In this document: positions 12,819-57,861 of the stretch, piece after piece
How the letters are laid out: each line of letters opens with the position of its first letter
Position numbering within the stretch: position 1 is the stretch's first letter
Assembly (NCBI GenBank): GCA_019058245.1
Contig: JAHPZJ010000030.1
Coordinates: 155,294-219,293 of the forward strand
DNA length: 64,000 nucleotides
DNA from: Promethearchaeota archaeon
Lineage (GTDB): Archaea; Asgardarchaeota; Lokiarchaeia; Sigyniarchaeales; SOKP01
Reading direction: 5' to 3'
The notes under the pieces: generated by a model
Databases searched by the model: none
Told to the model about the DNA's origin: nothing
Seen by the model: the letters and a program-made list of their open reading frames with translations, nothing else
Program-made: the position numbers and the translations under genes

Positions 12819-14558
12819 ATGTACCATTTAGATGATGATGAATATTTAAACGTTCCATACTATAGAAAGACTCGGAGTATTTGCCCAGAATGTTTAGAAC
12901 CAATTGGTGCTGAAGTCTATGAGGAAAATGATGAGATTTGGATGAGAAAAACATGCGAAGAACATGGTGATTTCAAAGATAAAATTAGTAGTTCTGCTAA
13001 GTATTATAAATGGACCCATTGGGCAATAAAAGATAAAGATGGGAAGGTTGTATGGCAATTTGAAAAAAATGGAGAAGCTAATCCTCCAGATTGCGCAATT
13101 GAAGACCCGAGAGGGTGTCCCTATAACTGTGGTTTATGTCCAGAACATTTGTCAACTTGCTCACTGGCTCTAATAGATCTAACAAACCGCTGCAATTTTA
13201 ATTGTAACTTCTGTTATGCGAATGTACAAAAATCTGGCTATTTAATTGAACCTTCTCTTGAAGAAATTGATCGAATTATGAAGCATTTCAGAAGTAAACC
13301 AATCCCTGCTATTGCAATCATGTTTACAGGTGGAGAACCAACAGTAAGAAAAGATTTTCCCGAAATTTGTAAAATGGCAAAAGATAATGGATTTAAAGAA
13401 GTCATAGTTGCAACAAATGGTTATGGATTCCAAAAGAAAACTGGAGGCCTTGAATGGACTAAAAAAGTAAAAGAAGCTGGCTTGGATACCTTATATTTCC
13501 AATTTGATGGTATTAATAATACAACTTATGAGAAAACTCGGGGAATCAAAAATCTTATGTCATATAAACAAAGAGTAATAGAAAATTGTCGTAAAGCAAA
13601 ACTTGATTCAATTGTTTTAGTAGCAACGATTGCGAAGGGAGTTACTGATATTGAAGTTGGTAATATTATTCAATATGCTATTGATAATGTTGACGTGGTT
13701 CGGGGAATTACTTTTCAACCAGTATCTCTATGTGGTCGAATAGCATTTGAAGAACGACAAGACTTAAGAATCACTAATGCAGATGTGCTCAAGATTATAG
13801 AAGAACAAACAAAAGGTAAAATTAGCATGGAAAATGCCTGGTATCCTTTGAGTACCATCGTAGAATTTGGCAGAGTTATTGCATATTTATCAGATGTTGA
13901 GCCTATAGAATTTACTTGCCATCCCGACTGTGGTTTTGCAAGTTATATGGTAATTGATCCTGATAGTGGTGAAATGATGCCCATTATGGACTATTTTGAC
14001 CCTCTAAAAGTTATAGATTTTGCTAACCGCTTTTGGGAGAAAATCAAACATAAAGAAAAGAAACAACTTAGATTATTCGAAGATTTATTAGGAGATTTTG
14101 GTAAAACACTTGATAAAGGATTAAACTTTTTAGATAAAACACAATTACGTGCTAGGTTCCTATTGGGCGTATTGCAGTATATGAAAAAGCCAGGAAAGCT
14201 TATGGAGATGTTTTCAAGACTTTTGATGCAAGGAGATTGGGAAAGTGTTAGTTCCTTTAGTTATGGGGCGCTTTTACTATCTAGTATGCATTTTCAAGAT
14301 GCTTATAACATGGATATTGAAAGAACAAAAAGATGTATTGTACACTTTGGTGTTGCAATGCCTGATGGTAGTGTAAAGGAATGCTCTTTTTGCACTATGA
14401 ACACACTTCATAGACCTCATATTGAGAAGCAAGTCGCTAAAAAACTTACCGCTAAGGTAAAGAATGAATTTGACACAACCACTGGTCAACCTGCAGAACA
14501 AATTCAACAAGTAGTAGCTCATAATGGGGGTATTAAAAAAGAGGAGGAAGAATCATAA
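12819..14558 (+). CDS. radical SAM enzyme with N-terminal Cys-ribbon and extra Cys clusters, Tes/GDGT-MAS-like (tetraether lipid synthase family candidate)
   Basis: 579-aa ORF with the canonical CNFNCNFC (CxxxCxxC) motif and GGEP. An upstream CPYNCGLCPEH cluster, an N-terminal CPEC...x20...CEEHG ribbon and C-terminal Cys pairs (CHPDCG, ECSFC) are present. The multi-cluster layout fits the Tes family, but the specific assignment is inferred. Confidence 0.6.
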   Translation: MYHLDDDEYLNVPYYRKTRSICPECLEPIGAEVYEENDEIWMRKTCEEHGDFKDKISSSAKYYKWTHWAIKDKDGKVVWQFEKNGEANPPDCAIEDPRGCPYNCGLCPEHLSTCSLALIDLTNRCNFNCNFCYANVQKSGYLIEPSLEEIDRIMKHFRSKPIPAIAIMFTGGEPTVRKDFPEICKMAKDNGFKEVIVATNGYGFQKKTGGLEWTKKVKEAGLDTLYFQFDGINNTTYEKTRGIKNLMSYKQRVIENCRKAKLDSIVLVATIAKGVTDIEVGNIIQYAIDNVDVVRGITFQPVSLCGRIAFEERQDLRITNADVLKIIEEQTKGKISMENAWYPLSTIVEFGRVIAYLSDVEPIEFTCHPDCGFASYMVIDPDSGEMMPIMDYFDPLKVIDFANRFWEKIKHKEKKQLRLFEDLLGDFGKTLDKGLNFLDKTQLRARFLLGVLQYMKKPGKLMEMFSRLLMQGDWESVSSFSYGALLLSSMHFQDAYNMDIERTKRCIVHFGVAMPDGSVKECSFCTMNTLHRPHIEKQVAKKLTAKVKNEFDTTTGQPAEQIQQVVAHNGGIKKEEEES

Positions 14559-18580: not shown

Positions 18581-21496
18581 TTAAAAAAACGCATCCATTT
18601 TTTTAATACCTTTTATCTCTTCATATGTTATACCTAGAGCATCTAAAACCTGTTCTAACGCTGAAATTAGAAGATCTTTGTATTTTTTAGTATCTATATC
18701 TTGGAGTTTAGCTAAGTCAATAGCTTTTGTTCCAATTGATCCCTTACTTTTAATAAAACTTATGGTTTCTCCTTTTTGAAATTCTTTTCCAGTTGCCGCT
18801 TTTAATTCTAATGCTGCTCTTACATGTTGAGGAATAACTTTTGTATAACTCTTAAGATCTTTTTGCAAAGCAATGTTTATAACATAATCTTCTAACTTGA
18901 AAGCATCTGGTTTTCCTATCTTTTTTAGATTGTTCCTTACAATTTCTTTAATCCTATCTTTAGCTTTCAAAAATTCATCATTAGTGGTGATCTGCTTCAA
19001 TATTTCGATCATTTCACTAAAAGCTTTTTTAATAAAGTTAGGTGTGTTTTTCTTCTTAGCAACAAGACCTTTTATATCTACATATTTAGTATTTTTATAA
19101 ATTCCAATATAGTTTTTCTTTCTATCAGAAAGTGCAAGAAACTGATAGGTCTTTTCCTCTTCTAAGTCAAGATCTAATTCTTTTCTGCTCCATTCTGATA
19201 TTATTTTCATCTGATCATTAGTTGGATTTAAAAGAAAAACGCTATCAGTATCCCCATAGAGAACTTTCACACCTATATCTTCCGACTTCTTAATGGTTTG
19301 TTTTATTGAATATTGACCTATTGAAGTAGTACTTTCTGCAACAGGAAGACAAAATAGAGGAAAATTCTGAGAGCCAAAAACACCATAACTTCCATTAATA
19401 AAAACTTTAAGAGCTTGCTGAATCGTATGATAATAACTTCTTTGTTTTTCTGTTAAATTTTTATCGGTTGATTTGGGTTTAAAATATTTAACTCTGATAT
19501 CTCTAAAAAAGCCTACAACATAAGCAAAGATTCCCATTTTTTTAGTACATATATGATAAGGGGTTCCTTTTACAAGATTATCTTCATCTTCTTTATGAGG
19601 ACATAATACTGTTTCGTATGATAAGTTATATTCTTTGATAATAGAAGGGTAAAGTGAAGCAAAATCCATCACTACGACGTCAAAATGAATTCCAGGAACA
19701 GGTGGGATAACATAAGCCCCTGCAAATGTTTTTCCTTCAATAACCGCTTTTGAATAGCCTCCAGTTTTTAATTCAGCGATTTCTGATCTACGAGGTATTA
19801 AATAATTTTTTCTTCTATGTTCAAAATAAAAAATATTTTGAATCCATGTTGATATTTGGCGCCTTACTGTTTCATGAATAGGCATTTTGGTAATTCGACA
19901 TAATAATACAATTAAATTCCAGACAAGTGAGTTATTAAATTTTGTTAATTCTAATGTAAGTATTGAATCTTTTAAATTATACCACGTTAGAACATCATAT
20001 TCCATTTCATGTATTTCTTCTTCATGCGCATATTTCATTTCTCCCAATAATGCATCGCTAATCGCGTTTAATGAACTACTTTCATATGCACCTCCAAAAG
20101 CATATCCAGAAATACTTCGATTAAAGAAAAAATTAAATAGGTCAATATGGATTCCCTTTCTCAAGTCACAATCAGATCTTGATAAGAACCCAAAACCTCT
20201 CTTAATATGGATAGGATTTAAATCTTTATCAATTTTCAATTTATTTGCTCTATGAAACATATAAGTTAGATCAAAATTATCTCCGTTGAAGGTAATAACT
20301 ACAGGATATTCCCATAATAAACGAAAAGTCTCTATTAATAATTCTTTTTCACTTTTAAAGAAAACTAATTTGGCGTCTGACGGAAATCTCTTATGTAGTC
20401 CATGAAAAAGGAATCCTTCTCTTTCTAAAACATATACTAATTTTAATCCATCTGATGCTACAAAAGAAATGCTAATAATTGCTTGTTTTGCCTGACGAGG
20501 ATCTGGGATAACAAAATCTTCTGATCCTAAATTTACTTCGATATCCATAGCTATCCGTTTTACATCTGGAATCGGTGTAAGAAATATATCTAAAAACTTT
20601 TCCGAAAACTCTTGAAGTTCTGACGATTCATTTTTGAACAGATTCCGTAATTCTTTTGCCATATTTTTAGATTCTTCTGAATCCTCTTCAAAACTCAACT
20701 TTTTGATTTGACCACCTTCAATAGAATATATTAATCCAGGAATTAGTTGTCTATCGAAAATATAGTTCAAATGATATCTAATATCTGCTTCCCATGCTTT
20801 TTTATTGTTTTTACTTAAAATATTTCTAATATTTGTACCAGAACCACCAATATCTGACGGTGTTTTACCATATATTTTTGTCATCGATATTTCTGTATCT
20901 TTTAGCAGATCAATTCTCTTAATTTCTTCAAATCTAGTAAAACCTTCATAATCTGTTAATTCTATAATATTCTGTAAATCTGCTATTGATTCCTTACTTA
21001 AGCAATAAGGTTCATGATCAGTAGTATCAATCCATATTCTTATATCATCAGTTTTAAGATCATAAAATTTACAGTATGCTTTATTTTGACTTCCATCATA
21101 ATCAACATCAAGCAATATACCTCTTTCCATATCTTCAACGATTTCTCCTTTTTCAATAAGATAACGAATATATTTTGAAGAAAAATTTTCTCTTAAAACT
21201 TTTGGTAATTTAATATTTCCTTCTTTTAAGCCAAATTGTTTGTCATTCCCTTCAAAAAATAAGTTTGAAGGAATCTCCTCTGAAATAGGCTCTAATTGAG
21301 GCTTTGATTCTTTAGCTTTATGTTCTTTTATAGCTTTCGGTTTATCTTTTGGGCTTTTTTCTGGAGTTTTATCAATTTTTGGTTTCTTTTCTGATTCTGA
21401 CTTCTTTTTTTTCTTTTTTGTATCTTTATCATCAACAAATGAAAATAATGATGTTTGGGATTTATCATCGGGTTTCTTCTTTTTTGAAGGTGGCAT
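18581..21496 (-). CDS. polB: family B DNA polymerase with a Lys-rich N-terminal extension
   Basis: 971-aa ORF. Exo I is AMDIEV, Exo II is FNGDNFDLTY and Exo III is YNLKDSILTLEL. Pol A is MDFASLYPSII, Pol B is KVFINGSYGVFG and Pol C is VLYGDTDSVF. The motifs are contiguous, so no intein is present. Confidence 0.9.
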   Translation of the reverse strand: MPPSKKKKPDDKSQTSLFSFVDDKDTKKKKKKSESEKKPKIDKTPEKSPKDKPKAIKEHKAKESKPQLEPISEEIPSNLFFEGNDKQFGLKEGNIKLPKVLRENFSSKYIRYLIEKGEIVEDMERGILLDVDYDGSQNKAYCKFYDLKTDDIRIWIDTTDHEPYCLSKESIADLQNIIELTDYEGFTRFEEIKRIDLLKDTEISMTKIYGKTPSDIGGSGTNIRNILSKNNKKAWEADIRYHLNYIFDRQLIPGLIYSIEGGQIKKLSFEEDSEESKNMAKELRNLFKNESSELQEFSEKFLDIFLTPIPDVKRIAMDIEVNLGSEDFVIPDPRQAKQAIISISFVASDGLKLVYVLEREGFLFHGLHKRFPSDAKLVFFKSEKELLIETFRLLWEYPVVITFNGDNFDLTYMFHRANKLKIDKDLNPIHIKRGFGFLSRSDCDLRKGIHIDLFNFFFNRSISGYAFGGAYESSSLNAISDALLGEMKYAHEEEIHEMEYDVLTWYNLKDSILTLELTKFNNSLVWNLIVLLCRITKMPIHETVRRQISTWIQNIFYFEHRRKNYLIPRRSEIAELKTGGYSKAVIEGKTFAGAYVIPPVPGIHFDVVVMDFASLYPSIIKEYNLSYETVLCPHKEDEDNLVKGTPYHICTKKMGIFAYVVGFFRDIRVKYFKPKSTDKNLTEKQRSYYHTIQQALKVFINGSYGVFGSQNFPLFCLPVAESTTSIGQYSIKQTIKKSEDIGVKVLYGDTDSVFLLNPTNDQMKIISEWSRKELDLDLEEEKTYQFLALSDRKKNYIGIYKNTKYVDIKGLVAKKKNTPNFIKKAFSEMIEILKQITTNDEFLKAKDRIKEIVRNNLKKIGKPDAFKLEDYVINIALQKDLKSYTKVIPQHVRAALELKAATGKEFQKGETISFIKSKGSIGTKAIDLAKLQDIDTKKYKDLLISALEQVLDALGITYEEIKGIKKMDAFF

Positions 21497-37004: not shown

Positions 37005-38009
37005 ATGTCATTTCATATAGAAACAAGAAAAGTACAAAAAACAGGAGGATCTTCCTATATTATATCTCTACCTAAAGTATGGATTGACAAACATGGGGTA
37101 GAAAAAAATGATACTTTAGGAATATTATCACAACCAGATGGAAATTTGTTGATAACTCCTCAGATTGAAAATGAAAAAGGTATTAAGACAAAAGAGATCG
37201 TTGTTGATGATTATAAGGATGAAAATTTTTTATTCCGGGTATTAATTGGAGCATATATTATGGGATTTTCTAGAATTGTATTAAAATCTAGTAAGAAATT
37301 TGAACCTTTAATGAGAGATACTATAACCAATTTCACTCAAATCGCAATAGGGCCAGAAATTATTGAAGAATCTAATAATTTCATTATGATTAAAGATTTA
37401 CTAAATCCTAAAGAAATGCCTTTTGAAAAAACAATAAAAAGAATGTATATTCTTGTACAGGATATGCATGAGGATGCAATCGATGCTCTAGAAACAGGGA
37501 AAAGCGAATTGGCTGAAGAAGTAATCAAAAGAGACGATGATGTTGACAGATTACATTGGTTGATTAGTCGTCAATCCCATATTGTATTGAGAGATATAAT
37601 TCTTTGCCAGAAAATGGGGATAACTTTAGAACAAGCGAGTCATTATCAACAAATGAGTAGATTCCTTGAAAGAATTGGGGATCATGCTTCAAAGATAGCT
37701 AAAAATGTCTTAATTCTTTTAAAACAAAAAATTGATGATAAGTTAAAGGATGAACTAAAAGAAGTAAGTAAATTGTCACTAGATTTATTGAATAAAAGTC
37801 TTGATGCTTGGCTTCAGAAAAGTATTAGTTTAGCGAATGAAAATATTGAAGAGATAAAAATATTAATCTCAATCACAGAGAAGATAAGTCTTAATACAAA
37901 TGTAAATGTGCAAGTTTCAATGGCGATAGGATATATTATTGAAAGTATAAGAAGAACGGCAGAATACTCTGGAGATATTTCTGAAATAATAATTAATAAT
38001 CTAGTATAA
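37005..38009 (+). CDS. AbrB/SpoVT-domain plus PhoU-domain transcriptional regulator (archaeal phosphate uptake regulator type)
   Basis: 334-aa ORF. The N-terminal swapped-hairpin motif is VQKTGGSSYIISLPKVWIDKHGVEKNDTLGI. PhoU repeats follow (DDDVDRLHWLI, SRFLERIGDHASKIAKN). It is divergent from pstS. Confidence 0.8.
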   Translation: MSFHIETRKVQKTGGSSYIISLPKVWIDKHGVEKNDTLGILSQPDGNLLITPQIENEKGIKTKEIVVDDYKDENFLFRVLIGAYIMGFSRIVLKSSKKFEPLMRDTITNFTQIAIGPEIIEESNNFIMIKDLLNPKEMPFEKTIKRMYILVQDMHEDAIDALETGKSELAEEVIKRDDDVDRLHWLISRQSHIVLRDIILCQKMGITLEQASHYQQMSRFLERIGDHASKIAKNVLILLKQKIDDKLKDELKEVSKLSLDLLNKSLDAWLQKSISLANENIEEIKILISITEKISLNTNVNVQVSMAIGYIIESIRRTAEYSGDISEIIINNLV

Positions 38010-39990: not shown

Positions 39991-41181
39991 GTGTTTTCAA
40001 TTAAATTAGAATATTCTGAAAGATATAAAAGACTTCCAACCTATATTTTTGTTGAGATAGAACAATTACTTTCAGAAAAAAGAAAAAAAGGGGTTGATAT
40101 TATTCCTTTGGGAATAGGAGATCCTGATATTCCGACTCCTAATTTAATTATCAATGAATTAATAGATCAAGTGAAGAAACCAGAGAATCACCAATATCCC
40201 TCAAGCATGGGAGAAGAAGATTTTAGAGAGGGCGTTGCTAACTGGTATAAGACTAGATTTCATGTTGATTTAGATCCAAAAGAAGAGATTTCAAATATAA
40301 TTGGAGGAAAAGAAGGCGTAGCTAACATTGCTAGAGCATTTGTGAATCCAGGAGATATAGTTCTCTGTCCTAATCCCGGATATCCTGTTTATGAGAACGG
40401 AGCAACAAAATTATGTGATGCCTATCCACATTCAATGCCACTTTTAAAAGAGAACGATTTTTTGCCGGACTTAGATATTATTGATACAAAAATTCTTAAA
40501 AAAGCAAAATTAATGTATTTGAACTATCCTAATAATCCTACTGGTGCGATTGCACCAAAAGAATACCTAAAAAAAGTGGTTGATTATGCTCAAGATTATA
40601 ACTTTTTTATAGTTCATGATAATCCTTATTCAGAATTTACATTTGATGATTATATAGCACCTTCAATTTTACAAATAGATCAGAATCATGTTGAAATCAA
40701 TAGTGCATCTAAAATGTTTAATATGACAGGATTTCGATGTGGATGGATTGCTGGAAATAAAGAAATAATACAAGGAATAAGAAAGATTAAATCTCAAATT
40801 GATTCAGGATGCCCTACTTTTATCCAGAGAGCCGTACTTAAAGGATTAAATGAGTATAACTCTCAAAAAAAACCAGAAATAGTTGAGAAAACAGTAAAAA
40901 TATATGAAAAACGCAGAGATACTATGATTAAAGGATTAAATAATATTGGTTGGTTAACAAATACACCTCAAGCAACGTTTTACGTCTGGATTCAAATACC
41001 TGATAAATATCTTAATAAAGGTTGTATGAATTTTGTAAAATCTTTAATAGAAGTTGGAGTTGTTCTCACTCCAGGGATTGGATTTGGTCAATATGGGGAG
41101 GGTTTTGTTAGAATAGCTTTAACACAGTCAGAACACCGTATAAAAGAAGCAATAGAACGAATTGATAAAGTGATAAATTAA
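39991..41181 (+). CDS. class I PLP aminotransferase, LL-diaminopimelate aminotransferase (DapL)-like
   Basis: 396-aa ORF with a GTG start. It has LPTYIFVEIEQL...IPLGIGDPDIPTP at the N terminus, NYPNNPTG, and the PLP-Lys motif NSASKMFNMTGFRCGW. Confidence 0.7.
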   Translation: MFSIKLEYSERYKRLPTYIFVEIEQLLSEKRKKGVDIIPLGIGDPDIPTPNLIINELIDQVKKPENHQYPSSMGEEDFREGVANWYKTRFHVDLDPKEEISNIIGGKEGVANIARAFVNPGDIVLCPNPGYPVYENGATKLCDAYPHSMPLLKENDFLPDLDIIDTKILKKAKLMYLNYPNNPTGAIAPKEYLKKVVDYAQDYNFFIVHDNPYSEFTFDDYIAPSILQIDQNHVEINSASKMFNMTGFRCGWIAGNKEIIQGIRKIKSQIDSGCPTFIQRAVLKGLNEYNSQKKPEIVEKTVKIYEKRRDTMIKGLNNIGWLTNTPQATFYVWIQIPDKYLNKGCMNFVKSLIEVGVVLTPGIGFGQYGEGFVRIALTQSEHRIKEAIERIDKVIN

Positions 41182-41587: not shown

Positions 41588-41843
41588 ACCTTACCTTGTG
41601 TCTTACACCAATAATCCATAGTATAATGTGAAAAACTCATTATTTAAAATAAGTTTGAATAGCTATATAAATCTTCCCATTCCAATCCCATTTATCAAAT
41701 TATTTTTAATTTCAATAATTTTTCTCAAGGAATTAAGGAAAGAATAATTATAATGACCTTGTTTTATAGCAAATAAACTAATGATAAATTTATTAACATA
41801 TATTTTTATTATCTTCAAAATAAATTAAAAGATTTATTGGGCG

Positions 41844-44800
41844 ATGAACTCCGAAAATAAAAATTATTCACAAGAAAAAATTAAAAAGGCTACGGAATTT
41901 CTTCAGAAGTCATGGTGGTTTTGTTTTTACTTAGTTATTGCTCCATTGATTATTGCTTTTTTAATAATAGTTATTTTTATTCAATCTGGAGTAAATATTT
42001 ATATCTCATTAGCATTTTCTGTTTTAAGTTTTATTTTTACACTACTTTTCTTTTTTAAAGTATATGATAAATACAGAAGAAAGCCATTTTTTCTAAATAA
42101 AGAGAATAACCCTACAGCCAGAATTCATAGTTTGTTCTTAATTTCTATATTTTCTTTGATAATAACACCAATATTTTACTTAATTTCACTTATGAATATC
42201 CCATTTACTTTACTTCCTCTAATTAGTTATGCTATTCTTTATAATATCATCTATTATTATTATTATCTTCAACCATTAGATTATTTCAACTTAGAAGAGA
42301 AGGAGTTTAAACATACTGAGAATATCAAGTTAATGTTTATACAACCGTATAACTTTATAATATTTCTTAATTATTTAATCCATATCATTTTCTTAGGAAT
42401 TACAGCATCTACAGAATTTTCTTGGCTTTTCAGTTTAATTTCAGATATAGCAGTCTATATACTCACTTTAGTATCAACTAAAGATCAAATTAGGAAGATT
42501 AAGGAACTTATTGCTGAGAATAAGTCAATTGTAAAAGATTTAATTGTTTTTAAAAAGAAATTTGTAGTTTGTATAGTTAATCTTCTTTTTATCTTATTAA
42601 TTCAAATGCCTTTTGTCAGTATCATTATGTTCAGTCTTAGAGGTGTTCTATATTCAAGTTTAGAACTTATAAGTTATGCATTTTTAACAGTAATTTTCAT
42701 CTTGTTCTATTTTAAATCTAGGTACTATATTAGTGTGTACTATAACACAAGACTTAAATTGTATATAGTATCTGATAATATCAATATTTCAAAAGAAAGT
42801 ACGTTTATAGAATATTTCAAGTATCAAAAACATAATTCTTATTTATCCGGAGTGTTAATTCTATTAATTACTATATTCTCTTTTTTAATTGAAATTCCTC
42901 TTTTAAATGTAATTATTCTTCCTTTCATTTTTATTCTTCTTTATTATGAACAAAAATCAGATCTCTGTCCTAAAAAATATAGCAGATTTGTAGCTTTATT
43001 AAATTCAATTTCAATATTGGCTTCTATCGCTTTTGGTTTAATACCATTGATATCTGAGATGCCCTTATTAAACTTTTTAATTTTTTGTCTTTCATTGTAT
43101 TTTGTATTACAAATTTTTGCTAGATATAAATATTTCATTAAGGATGATATTCTTTTATACCAAAATCTACTTGCTATAGCAAGTTTTATATTATTATTTT
43201 ACTCATTCTTTCCGATAGCTATTATCGAATATACAACCTTTACATCAAACCCAATAATAATTCTTATTTCAAATATACTTTTACATTCATTGATTATTTT
43301 AGTAACCTTCTTAATTTCATTATATATTCTAGGGGTTCGATATTTTTATGCTAAGACCCCGAAATCATTTAAGACCTATATTATCATAATAAGTTTTTTA
43401 ATTGAACTTGTTATTTTTGCACTCATCAATTTTAGGAACTTTTTAGTATTGGGATTTATCAATTTTTTATATTCACTTTGCATCTCATCAATTTTATTCC
43501 CAATTGTTTTCATAGTTTTCCTTTTTGTAAATTATAGTCTAAATGCATTCAAATTAGAATATTTCTTAACCTTATGTTATTATATTTTTTGGATTTTTAT
43601 TGTTGATTTCTTCATTTCTCTGCTGATTATCTCTTTACTCAATATTTACATCATTGTTCTAATATTAGATTGTTTAATTTCATCCATTTTTTATTATTTT
43701 ATATTGAAATTTGGTATGGAATTAGAAAAAATAAATGAATCCAAATTTAATACAAATAATAAAATCAATTCCTATTTAATTGGTATTGAGCTTTTATCAT
43801 TATTTTTTACTATTTTTTTTATAGCTTTTCAATCTATCTCCTTAGCAGAAAATTTAATCTATTCATTATATTTATCATTACTAATCGTCGGTGGATTAGT
43901 CAATCTATTTTCAAAAATAGAAATTTTTTCGGAAGACCTCATTCTTAGAATAAATGCATTTATTCTATTATATAGCTCATTAATAGCTTTTTACTTCATT
44001 TTATTACTTACTTTTAATACAACTTATGTTTATATAGTTCCTCTACTGGTCTTTTCTACAATTTTTTACTTACCGCTTTTATTTTTGAAGAAGAAAAGCA
44101 TATTCAAAAACTTTATATCTAAGTTATTAAAAGTAAATAGTCTGCTATTTTCAGCAACATTATCCTTAATTCCCATTATTATAGGTTTGGAAATGTTCAA
44201 TTTAGGATTATATTTTGATTTAATTTTTTTAATATTTTCTGTAATCAATTTTAGCTTATATATTGTATTCGCTCTTCTTGGTATTTACTATTTCTTATTG
44301 AAGAAAATCAAGGTTGATGAAAATCGAGTTAATCTGATTCTTAAATTACATATATTAATAGCAGTAATTATTGGAATTACAACGATATTTTATTATCCAT
44401 TTTTTCTATTAACCGGGACATTCTATTGCATAGTATTACCATTGATTTTTATGTTCTGCTTCTTTTATATACCTCTTTTTTACTCTTACAAGAAACAGTT
44501 GTTTAATGTTAAACTAGTTAAATTAGAAATAGTTTTAATTACTATAGCTTTAACAGGTTTATTTACTTCAATACCTTCAATAGTTAGTTTAGATTTAATA
44601 AATAAAAGTTTGATATTTTATTCTAAGGTTTTACCTGTAAATATTATAAACTTTTCCTTCTACATTTTCTTTATTTTTTTATTAATTCTTAGTAGTCTAT
44701 TTAAAAAATTAGAATTAAAAAGCAAATTTATTTTAAATTTAGGTAGATTACAATTCTTTACCATATTTTGTATTTCTATTACTACACTATTTTTCTACCC

Positions 44801-47800
44801 ATTTTCATTGTTAAGTGGATTTTTTTATAAAATCCTTATTTCTTTCATTGCTTTATTGTCTTCTTGGTTTTTTATTTTCTATTATGCTTATAGAAAAGAA
44901 TATTTCAATCTAGTATTAGTAAGACTATTAACAATCTATAATTTTACTGTATTATCGTGCTTAATTATTTCGTTACCATTTATAATTGGATTAGAAGTAT
45001 TTGGATTCGCAGCTAATTTCATCCTAATAATAACCCTAACACTATTAATTCTATTTGTTTTTCTTAATATTTTTGAGATTATCGCAAATAAAATTAAGTT
45101 AAAAGAAAGATATATAAAATATTCTAAATTGCTTAAACCAATTCTCTTTTTTCTATTATCATTATTTTTGTCTTATTATATATCTACGATTTTTATTATT
45201 AGACTTACACTAACTCCTATAACTTTTCTAGTGTTAAGTTGTAGCTTTTTAGTTTTTTTCTTATTAAGTATGTATACCCTGGAACTTACATTTTCCTATG
45301 ATCCCAAATTATTGACATTAAAAAAGTATAAAGATATTATCATTTATGGAATCATTCTTTCATTATCATCAATTTTTACTTTTTTAAGCATATCAACAAA
45401 TATTCTTTCATCTTTTTTTCTAACTTCAATAATATTTAATTCATCTATTATAATTGGTGTTTTTACTTCATTATTTCTTTTATTTTTGATTCTGGGTGAC
45501 AATTTAATAGAATTGAAATTACCGCAGGTAAAAATAATCTGCGAATTAATTGCATGGGTAATTATAAAGGTAATATTATGCATTTTAACATTTTTTCTTA
45601 TTGACGTTTTTGCGTATCAATTCTTTATTGTAAATAAAATATTGCTAGTTTCATTAATTTTTACCGTTCTTACACCCTTAAGTCTTCATATATTAAAAAA
45701 TCTGAGTTTAGTATCATCTAAAAATAAATTACTAATAAAAAAACTAACTGAAATTGTATTTATTATTTCTTTATTAGGAATTTATACTGAAATTTCTTAC
45801 AATTTATTAAATTTAATACCACTATTTTATCAGAACTCACTTTTGAAAATAGTATCTCTCACTATTAATCTGATTTTAATTTTATATTATTTTTCTATAA
45901 AGTATAATAGAGTACTAGAAGAACATTCTTCACTCAATATTTACAGCTTTTATTTAACATCCTTCTTATTATTTTTCAGCTTTCTTTATTTTAATACTAA
46001 TCTTTCAGTTTTCCTTATATTACTATCGTATGTATTAATTCTTTCTAAGAGGAGCATAATTTCTATTTTTCGGTTTTTATCATATTTCTTACTAAGTTAT
46101 TATACTTTTACTACGATTCTAGTAATTATAAATTTCTATGGGGTTACAATAGCGTTTAATTTAACAAATCTAAGTATATTCATCAATCTATATCTCTTAA
46201 CGACAATTTTCGTTTTGGTTTTCTCTATTATTCTAAATATAAAGAAAAATAATACCCAAGAAAAATTTACATTATATTCTCTAATTTCTATACTCTCTTA
46301 TGTTTCTCTCATGAACTTTACAAATATTTTATCAATTTATAACATTACAATTTCACTTTTCATATTCTTATTCTTTATGGGAATTTACTTTCATCATCAA
46401 AAAGATGAACGTTATAAATGGTTTATTAAGCCTTGTTTAATTTTGTTTATCTTTGACTTTATTAGCTTTCTATCATATTCATGGTTCTTTAATAATCAGA
46501 TTTATGATACTTACAATCCAATTTTAACTTTCACTCTTACTCTTAGTATAACAGGTTTTGGATTCGTTTTATTGTATAATGAGGCTCCAAGAAAATTTCG
46601 AAAGAAATTCTTCTATATTATACTAGCATCAATAGTTATTGCTTTTCCAATCTTTATCTATTTTTTAATGATTGCGTCTTTATCAATGCCATTATTATCT
46701 ATAGTTCCATTAATAGTCGCAATAGATTTTGGTGTTTTTCTTTTTTATCTTTGTATTGCAATATATCACTGGAGGATTTCATGGGCAATTTGGAAATCTG
46801 GATGGTATGTGTGGAATATTCTACCTTTTGTTAACTTCTTTATTATATATCAAAGTTTTACTGGAATTGATGTATTCACTGACTCATTGCAATTTGGATT
46901 AATTCAAGTAGAAGGTTCATTAATAATTTCAATGATAATATGTTCTTTATTTTTCTTGCCAGTATTGTATACAAAAATTAAAAAATATTTTTTTTATATA
47001 ATATTTATTATATGGGGTGAAAGTCTATTTTTACTCTATTGGGTTAACTCAAATTTATTTGTCAGTGATCTAGTATTAAGAAATTTATCTTTTGTTTTAT
47101 TTTCAGTTATACTATTAATGCCTTTATTCGCGGGATTTAAATATTGGAAAATGGTGTCGATATTTTGGCTTTTATTAACTATAATTAATAGTTTATTTTT
47201 ATTGGGCTATTTAGTTTCTATTGGGGTCAATTTAGAAATGGTAATTTCAATTGACATTTTAGTTTTTGGGTTATTTTTTATTGTTTATTCATTTTTTCCA
47301 AATATAAGATCCTATGGAGTTATATTAATAAGTGCCTATCTTATTACACTTTCAGGTATTTTCTCCACAGTTTTATTCATTTTTTATTTATTATTATTAG
47401 ATCCCATATTTTCTGTGAACATTAGTTTTATCATAGTTGGTTTAAGTCTTTTTTCCTCAAAATATTTAAAATTATCGAATAGAATTATAGATCATAGTCT
47501 CTCTTGGGTATTAATATTCAACTTAGCATGGTTAACTTTCAATACTTTCAATCTATTTCCAGGATTTGTTGTGTTTGCATTCTCTTTAGCACTAACTGTT
47601 TTTGGATTTTCATTTTTCATCTTTAATCACTACAAAATGAAAATGCCTATTAGAATTATAATTCCAAGTTCAATTATCACGATTGGGGCTTCTCTTTCAG
47701 TCACCTCTTTTATATCTTTAATTTTTAAAGCATCCCCCGGGATATTAATCTCTACGTTTTCTTCAGTATTTATAGTATTCTTATATTTTTTAATTAAAGA

Positions 47801-56427: not shown

Positions 56428-57861
56428 ATGTCTGAACCATCATTAGAAAATTTGTTAAGGGATGCCAGAGTTGATCTGGTATTATCTAGAATAGAGAGTA
56501 ATCCATCTGTAATTAGTGAAGTTATTAAATATTTGGATAGTTCAATAAGATCTATAAAATTCAATTCAATTAACGTTTTAGGGCAAGTAGGAGACAAATC
56601 CAAAACCGCTGTTCCTAAGTTAATAAAACTTTTAGAGGATGAGGATTGGAGTATTTGTCGAGAAACTGTACGTTCTTTGGGAAATATTGGAGAGCTTGCA
56701 AAAGATGCAATACCCAATCTATCGAAATTGCTTAATAGTAAAGAAATATCTATTCGCAAAGAAGCCGCAATAAGTCTTGGTAAAATAGGAAATCCAACTA
56801 AAGATTCAATTTCAGGTTTAGTTAAGGCATGTAATGATGATAGTGAGGAAGTTCGAACTGAAGCAGCAAGAAGCATTGGAGAACTAGGGCCAGAAGCTCA
56901 AGGATCTATACCACAATTAATGAAGTGTCTTAAAGATGCAGATTGGGCGGTTAGAACAGCTTCTGCTCAATCAATTAGTAAGATTGGAAAAGGATCTACA
57001 ATAGCCATTCCTCAACTGATTCAATCATTAGAAGACAAAGATTGGAGAGTACAATACAGAGTAATAAATACATTGGCGGATATTGGTCGAGAAGCTGTTC
57101 AAAGCCTTTTAGAAGTATTAAACCATAAGAAAAAAAATGTCAGAATTGGAGCAATTGATGCTTTAAGTGAAATGAAAATAAGTGATCCAGAAGTTATAAA
57201 TAGGTTAGCTATTCTATTAAAAGATAAAAAAGAAGCTGTACGAGGAAAAGCCGCATATGCTCTTCGAAATATTGGAAAAGATAGCATTCCAGCCTTAGTT
57301 AAAGCACTTGATACAGCTAATAAAAAAATGCAGATCGTAATTCTTACAGCAATAGGAGGAATTGGTAAGGATGCAGCAGAGGTAATCCCCACTATTATAA
57401 ATTTTCTAAAGCATCCTGAACAAGATAATGAACTTCCACTCTCACAGTCGTTCTTTGGAAGAATAGGACAAGCATTTTCAACATTTTTTACTGATCCAAC
57501 CTCAACAAAAAGTAAAATTCGTGTTGAAGCAGCAAGAACTCTCGGTAGAATTGGACCAGAATCGGAAAATGTTATAAAAGCCCTTGAAATAGCATTAAGA
57601 GATCCAAAGAAGAATGTTCGTCGGGAAGCCGCTCTTGCGTTAGGTAAATTTGGATCATTATCAAAAATGAGTATTCCATCTTTGATCAATGCATTAAATG
57701 ATAGAAGTCCAGATGTAAGATGGAGAATTTCTGAAGCGTTGGGTAAGATAGGTGAAAAAACAACAGAAGTTGTTTCAATCCTAAATGAATTAATACATGA
57801 TAAATGTGATTATGTATGTGAATCAGCTTATAATGCTCTTGATGAATTAACTGGTGAATAA
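56428..57861 (+). CDS. HEAT-repeat (PBS-lyase-type) protein, about a dozen ~31-aa repeats
   Basis: 477-aa ORF starting 11 nt after the livF stop. The repeating pattern is D(x)W(x)VR(x)xAAxSLGxIGxxAxxAIPxLxxxLxD, for example DEDWSICRETVRSLGNIGELAKDAIPNL, DADWAVRTASAQSISKIG and SPDVRWRISEALGKIG. Confidence 0.8.
   Translation: MSEPSLENLLRDARVDLVLSRIESNPSVISEVIKYLDSSIRSIKFNSINVLGQVGDKSKTAVPKLIKLLEDEDWSICRETVRSLGNIGELAKDAIPNLSKLLNSKEISIRKEAAISLGKIGNPTKDSISGLVKACNDDSEEVRTEAARSIGELGPEAQGSIPQLMKCLKDADWAVRTASAQSISKIGKGSTIAIPQLIQSLEDKDWRVQYRVINTLADIGREAVQSLLEVLNHKKKNVRIGAIDALSEMKISDPEVINRLAILLKDKKEAVRGKAAYALRNIGKDSIPALVKALDTANKKMQIVILTAIGGIGKDAAEVIPTIINFLKHPEQDNELPLSQSFFGRIGQAFSTFFTDPTSTKSKIRVEAARTLGRIGPESENVIKALEIALRDPKKNVRREAALALGKFGSLSKMSIPSLINALNDRSPDVRWRISEALGKIGEKTTEVVSILNELIHDKCDYVCESAYNALDELTGE

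Follow-up and report, generated by a model that had tools for sequence, protein, structure and literature searches.

A giant Asgard archaeal membrane protein with about 89 predicted transmembrane helices, built as a conserved core between two arrays of four-helix units

Introduction

Piezo channels are composed of 38 transmembrane (TM) helices per chain; the pore is formed by the last two, and the N-terminal 36 are arranged in nine four-helix units (THUs) that make up blades, which are curved and bend the membrane (PMC12377734). In Caenorhabditis elegans, PEZO-1 isoforms lacking THU1–4 retain the response to mechanical stimulation, and the curvature imposed on the membrane varies from isoform to isoform (PMC12951647).

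Here, we describe a gene in an Asgard archaeon that is located at positions 41844–50444 (+) of the window, i.e., the whole 64,000-nucleotide stretch of DNA analyzed, and encodes a protein (P0001) of 2866 amino acid residues; by ORF and topology scans, the protein is predicted to have about 89 TM helices, with its N terminus inside and its C terminus outside. To our knowledge, no characterized protein exceeds about 40 TM helices per chain. Like Piezo, the Asgard protein is a giant single chain with tandem four-TM units, the number of which is variable in both cases (among the PEZO-1 isoforms and among the homologs of the Asgard family, respectively), and neither possesses a soluble catalytic domain. 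The two nonetheless differ in several respects. The predicted helices in the Asgard protein are more than twice as many as the 38 of Piezo, which is the largest known channel; the pore (OH/IH) is C-terminal in Piezo, whereas the Asgard arrays flank a central core; Piezo is equipped with an extracellular cap, but the Asgard protein has no cap, its outside loops amounting to only 271 residues in total; and the Asgard family is found only in archaea and not in eukaryotes.

Results and discussion

An intact gene of 2866 codons

The ORF of the giant gene runs from ATG to TAG without interruption, while the other five frames over the same span contain at most 131 codons between stops. In 200 composition-preserving shuffles, furthermore, the longest ORF was 133 codons, and an ORF of 2866 codons is hence far beyond chance. 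An earlier reading of this DNA, made from the sequence only, had described one uninterrupted ORF among otherwise chopped frames, and this description was confirmed. The GC content of the gene (23%) is lower than the 26–32% across the window, but its GC3 (0.20) resembles that of the neighboring genes (0.17–0.26). The low GC content is therefore ascribed to the amino acid make-up of the protein and not to foreign DNA; indeed, Leu (18.3%), Ile (16.9%), and Phe (12.3%) together account for 48% of the residues.

The gene is single-copy in the host genome (contig C30; 3.09 Mb in 31 contigs, 76% complete) and is contained whole in two independent public metagenome studies (sediment, 2021; soil, 2023). 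A 7.7-kb contig from soil covers positions 41661–49361 with three SNPs and no insertions or deletions. Because independent metagenome contigs reproduce the sequence free of indels, the giant gene is neither an assembly artifact, a concern raised in the sequence-only reading, nor a frameshifted fragment; the gene is real and intact. Full-length homologs are also located on many further contigs. The three SNPs relative to the near-identical soil contigs of the same organism (45787 C>T, 46491 A>T, and 46838 C>T) fall inside the gene and appear to be strain variation.

Membrane topology

TM helices were called in a topology scan by dynamic programming with Kyte–Doolittle hydropathy, TM segments of 17–26 residues, loops of at least 2 residues, and a positive-inside bonus. 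At every threshold tried, 89 TM helices were predicted, close to the roughly 90 previously counted by eye, and this number rests on hydropathy and charge bias. TM residues amount to 62% of the protein. The N terminus is placed in the cytoplasm, and the final TM helix at the very end of the chain leaves the C terminus outside. In the inside loops, 178 of the 812 residues (22%) are Lys or Arg, as compared with 11 of the 271 residues (4%) in the outside loops, which have about six residues on average and are all shorter than 20 residues. Even when charges were left out of the calculation, a plain hydropathy scan gave 172 Lys/Arg residues in even loops versus 13 in odd loops, and this alternation showed no parity break in any stretch along the whole chain. 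One missed or extra helix would break the parity, and the segmentation is hence internally consistent across the protein. There is thus strong sequence evidence that nearly all of the predicted segments are real TM helices, and the giant protein is likely to span the membrane about 89 times. By hydropathy, TM helices are indistinguishable from helices that are re-entrant or that lie, as amphipathic helices, in the membrane plane, and the true number could be somewhat below 89 if such helices are among the predicted segments.

The longest polar stretches are 39–42 residues long (residues 291–331, 2034–2072, and 2680–2721) and are all cytoplasmic, in good agreement with the 30–45 residues estimated by eye. 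With the longest loop being 42 residues, a soluble catalytic or binding domain is absent from the protein, for which the sequence-only reading had also seen no room. This absence makes a role in structure, in transport, or as a channel more plausible than an enzymatic one. Alternatively, the protein might anchor cytoplasmic machinery to the membrane or offer it a platform, and would then be a structural hub and not a transporter or a mechanical device. Such a role would be compatible with the Lys/Arg-rich amphipathic segments on the cytoplasmic side and also with a small cytoplasmic zinc ribbon of about 40 residues, which is inserted near residue 152 in some homologs (e.g., P0070). Cytoplasmic loops of at most 42 residues, however, provide scant surface for binding, and no soluble module is conserved; we hence regard a platform as very improbable.

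Family and distribution

A protein homology search retrieved 74 homologs of 1600–3750 residues (E up to 1e-124), every one of which derives from Asgard metagenome-assembled genomes (MAGs) labeled Lokiarchaeia, Promethearchaeota, Hodarchaeota, or Thorarchaeota; relatives had been suspected in archaeal MAGs, and this guess proved right. The nearest homolog is 71% identical to the giant protein, and another, P0067, bears the database name “membrane protein of unknown function.” When a profile of the core (see below) was searched against 1.84 billion cluster representatives, 67 proteins were matched, all from Asgard archaea where the source is named, and these include a distant subfamily (P0105–P0113) of 3100–3900 residues. 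Among 201 sampled genomes of the host phylum, furthermore, the profile matched 30 of the 40 genomes in the host's own family and two of the three from a sister family within that order, but none in the other 25 families. These matches indicate that the protein family is confined to one Asgard lineage, that of the Lokiarchaeia/Promethearchaeota.

The family members of 2400–3900 residues have 77–121 predicted TM helices, and the count scales with the length. The extreme composition is also common to all homologs, with Leu, Ile, and Phe accounting for 42–48%. Uncharacterized Asgard proteins such as P0067, P0005, and P0113 belong to the same family, as they fall in this length range, align over the full length, and conserve the core; their database entries come with no described function. 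We also noticed that a public gene call, P0133 (1574 residues; L008:3744–12725, GCA_048937405.1), has a mis-called internal start and that the stop-to-stop ORF at the same locus is an intact family member of 2993 residues; the lengths registered in the database can therefore be artificially short for this family.

Pfam and NCBIfam scans of the giant protein gave no match above chance, and no transporter domain (ABC permease, MFS, BPD_transp, etc.) was found therein. Neither did the profiles of the core and of repeat array 1 match any PDB sequence at E ≤ 10, nor did a Foldseek search with the model of residues 1401–2600 return a PDB structure beyond weak matches, and no feature neighbor at 0.9 or higher was found in the ESM Atlas. 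DUF2339 (PF10101), a type of family that the sequence-only reading had proposed to check, was not matched in the Pfam scan and appeared in the ESM Atlas as a neighbor at 0.79, which is below significance. The earlier statement that the protein matches no characterized family hence holds for Pfam, NCBIfam, PDB sequences and structures, and the ESM Atlas. Giant membrane proteins of this type, conserved throughout a family, are not known to have been described before.

Modular architecture and conserved residues

Repeats in the protein were detected by profile–profile comparison (hhalign) of sub-alignments of the family. The N-terminal region (residues 1–672; 41844–43859, +) has about 19 predicted TM helices and includes the site at which the zinc ribbon is inserted in some homologs. 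It is followed by repeat array 1 (residues ~673–1140; 43860–45263, +), which consists of about 3.5 tandem units of ~134 residues with four predicted TM helices each; the units, starting near residues 699, 831, 971, and 1100, align mutually with an hhalign probability of 94–99%. The central core (residues ~1141–2129; 45264–48230, +) is the most conserved part, has about 32 predicted TM helices, and contains a Trp-rich loop as well as the cytoplasmic amphipathic segment at residues 2034–2072. Repeat array 2 (residues ~2130–2640; 48231–49763, +) is composed of four tandem units of ~130 residues, starting near residues 2146, 2279, 2405, and 2526, with 16 predicted TM helices in total; its period is the same as that of array 1 but the signal is weaker (hhalign probability of 62–89%), and each unit again has four TM helices. 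The C-terminal region (residues 2641–2866; 49764–50444, +) comprises the cytoplasmic amphipathic segment at residues 2680–2721 and six predicted TM helices, one of which terminates the chain.

In the 67 full-length homologs, the length of the segment matching residues 1200–2050 of the core is nearly constant (840 ± 31 residues), whereas the segments of arrays 1 and 2 range from 334 to 988 and from 449 to 1411 residues, respectively, in steps of about 130 residues. The plan of the family is therefore an invariant core of ~850 residues and ~32 TM helices, placed between two arrays of four-TM units with variable copy number.

Most of the invariant positions are found in the core and are mainly Trp, Tyr, Pro, Gly, and Asn, which fits a structural membrane protein. 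In the Trp-rich loop RISWAIWKSGWYVWNILP (residues about 1643–1681), W1650, W1657, P1661, and N1664 are invariant; this loop shows low pLDDT in the AlphaFold2 model described below. Conserved charged residues are also present within the TM segments of the core, including K1242 and R1403, and conserved intramembrane residues in array 2 are E2249, E2287, H2441, D2447, and D2569.

Structure model and comparison with Piezo

An AlphaFold2 model of residues 1401–2600 was built with a family alignment of 61 sequences and was found to be wholly helical (pLDDT 77.8, pTM 0.48). It contains 44 helices, many of which are 25–36 residues long, versus the 39 TM helices called by the topology scan in the same region. 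The modeled region is elongated, and its best Foldseek matches, while all weak, were solenoid proteins; that is, the model looks like an array of helices and not like a compact fold. Confidence is low in its outer part (pTM 0.48), which is uninformative on curvature. A single-sequence model covering repeat array 1 (residues 1–1200) had a pLDDT of 41.

At the level of architecture, the repeated four-TM units of a Piezo-type blade are found in the Asgard protein as units of ~130 residues in two arrays, and the comparison with Piezo drawn in the sequence-only reading was apt in this respect. Homology, in contrast, was not detected: no Piezo match was obtained in the Pfam hmmscan of the whole protein, the profiles of the core and array 1 matched none of the PDB sequences, Piezo1/2 included, at E ≤ 10, and Piezo was not among the top Foldseek matches of the model of residues 1401–2600 (pTM 0.48, all matches weak). 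The C-terminal module of Piezo that forms a trimeric cation channel (OH, extracellular cap, IH, and CTD) is also absent, as the outside loops, all shorter than 20 residues, hold no extracellular domain and the chain ends with a TM helix. With similarity detected neither in sequence nor, for the modeled region, in structure, the likeness is limited to an analogy; Piezo may thus be taken as a guide to a possible working mode of the giant protein but not as its family.

By this analogy, we tentatively favor, albeit at less than even confidence, the reading that the giant protein would be a scaffold within the membrane or a lateral “blade” device, the functional core of which is conserved. The four-TM arrays would be lateral, blade-like structural arms with tunable length, as in the Piezo blades, and may organize or bend a large patch of the membrane, sense it, or pass on force within its plane. 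The conserved activity would reside in the invariant core and might be that of a channel or transport path with mechanical or lateral coupling; such a path is considered because of the conserved intramembrane K1242 and R1403 and the Trp-rich loop. Conservation of the intact ORF across many Asgard genomes and in independent metagenomes, strong positive-inside alternation over the 89 predicted TM helices, and the lack of a soluble domain together with invariant residues that are mostly Trp, Tyr, Pro, Gly, and Asn are all consistent with a scaffold or blade, and so is the elongated, all-helical model with its solenoid-like matches. The variable copy number in the arrays and the constant length of the core match the principle of the Piezo blade. 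No resemblance of the protein to Piezo or to any other solved protein was detected, however, in sequence or, for the modeled region, in structure, the low-confidence outer part of the model says nothing on curvature, and a scaffold leaves unexplained the metabolic or transport context that is suggested by the neighboring genes, which are missing around the distant subfamily (see below).

Long membrane protrusions are typical of Lokiarchaeia. A more specific form of the blade device is conceivable, in which an Asgard-specific membrane-sculpting machine would use the tandem four-TM arrays as long and curved intramembrane blades to bend the membrane or sense its tension and may serve these protrusions; we consider this form possible but rather unlikely.

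Gene neighborhood

Upstream of the giant gene, a DapL-like LL-diaminopimelate aminotransferase is encoded at 39991–41181 (+; PRK09276 passes the cutoff), and a Liv-type ABC transporter follows downstream at 50617–56416 (+), comprising a substrate-binding protein (SBP; Peripla_BP_6, 50617–52041), two BPD_transp_2 permeases, and two ABC ATPases. Just past this operon is a protein of 477 residues with HEAT/PBS-lyase-like repeats (56428–57861, +), the counterpart of which in four relatives (L001, L003, L007, and L008) is an ORF of 474 residues with no Pfam call, and then an AMP-binding enzyme resembling long-chain fatty acid (LCFA)-CoA ligases. The aminotransferase and the transporter are syntenic in close relatives, and the same gene order is seen in relatives labeled Lokiarchaeia, Promethearchaeota, and Hodarchaeota. 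The same four relatives also encode a GH4 glycoside hydrolase, upstream of the giant gene and next to the aminotransferase on its other side; GH4 is absent from the window, where a gap of 660 bp is left instead, and none was found in the 76%-complete genome. The neighborhoods of the distant subfamily, on the other hand, share none of the DapL and Liv-cluster genes, and the synteny is also absent downstream of P0067. The DapL and Liv neighbors named in the sequence-only reading were thus correctly identified, but their synteny does not extend beyond close relatives, and the link to amino acid transport is hence specific to one clade.

Given this neighborhood, the giant protein might act as a transporter or channel, with a substrate that is hydrophobic or derived from amino acids, and work with the neighboring amino acid and fatty acid genes; the core would then be the translocation path, and the arrays an accessory or regulatory membrane surface. 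The order of genes in close relatives, running from the DapL-like enzyme through GH4, the giant gene, and the Liv SBP, permeases, and ATPases to the HEAT-repeat and LCFA-CoA-ligase-like proteins, is in favor of this idea, as are the conserved charged intramembrane residues (K1242, R1403, E2249, E2287, H2441, D2447, and D2569). No signal of a transporter family was detected at any level, however, and the Liv ABC transporter by itself already constitutes a full system for uptake. Together with the absence of synteny around P0067 and the distant members, these points make a giant transporter doubtful in our estimation.

At the locus of a distant-subfamily member, P0105, two lysophospholipid-acyltransferase-like genes (PF01553; L010, 5915–7697) adjoin the giant gene. 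These neighbors are a weak hint of a lipid context, unlike the amino acid context in the close clade. The protein could accordingly be imagined as a scramblase, flippase, or lipid-organizing array by which archaeal ether lipids are moved or sorted across a wide area of membrane, as might be needed to supply the protrusions of Lokiarchaeia. Being almost fully embedded in the membrane, with its outer face bare and with numerous Trp and Tyr residues at the interface, the protein would suit such a role, and the acyl-CoA ligase in the close clade may be added to the acyltransferases; but the protein carries no signature of a lipid enzyme or scramblase, and the evidence from the neighborhoods is inconsistent and weak. 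Lipid handling is, therefore, quite unlikely in our view.

Several other genes in the window are also worth recording. At 18581–21496 (−), about 20 kb from the giant gene, is the gene for a family B DNA polymerase (an archaeal PolB that exceeds the cutoff of PRK05761), and PolB is also near the giant gene in a relative (locus L005); this proximity is probably a coincidence. A radical SAM enzyme with an N-terminal zinc ribbon of the HMPTM type is found at 12819–14558 (+), and a MazE-like antitoxin domain is fused to a PhoU domain at 37005–38009 (+).

Conclusion

Among the readings considered, a scaffold or blade device remains the one that we favor for the giant protein. Lokiarchaeia are now in culture, and the localization and role of the protein are hence directly testable. 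With its tunable, Piezo-blade-like arrays of four-TM units, the protein could be a membrane-shaping or force-sensing device without a known counterpart; if this is true, a membrane-sculpting machine with about 89 TM helices would be the most TM-rich protein characterized, and the family would push out the limits assumed so far for how large polytopic membrane proteins can become and how they can evolve by modules.
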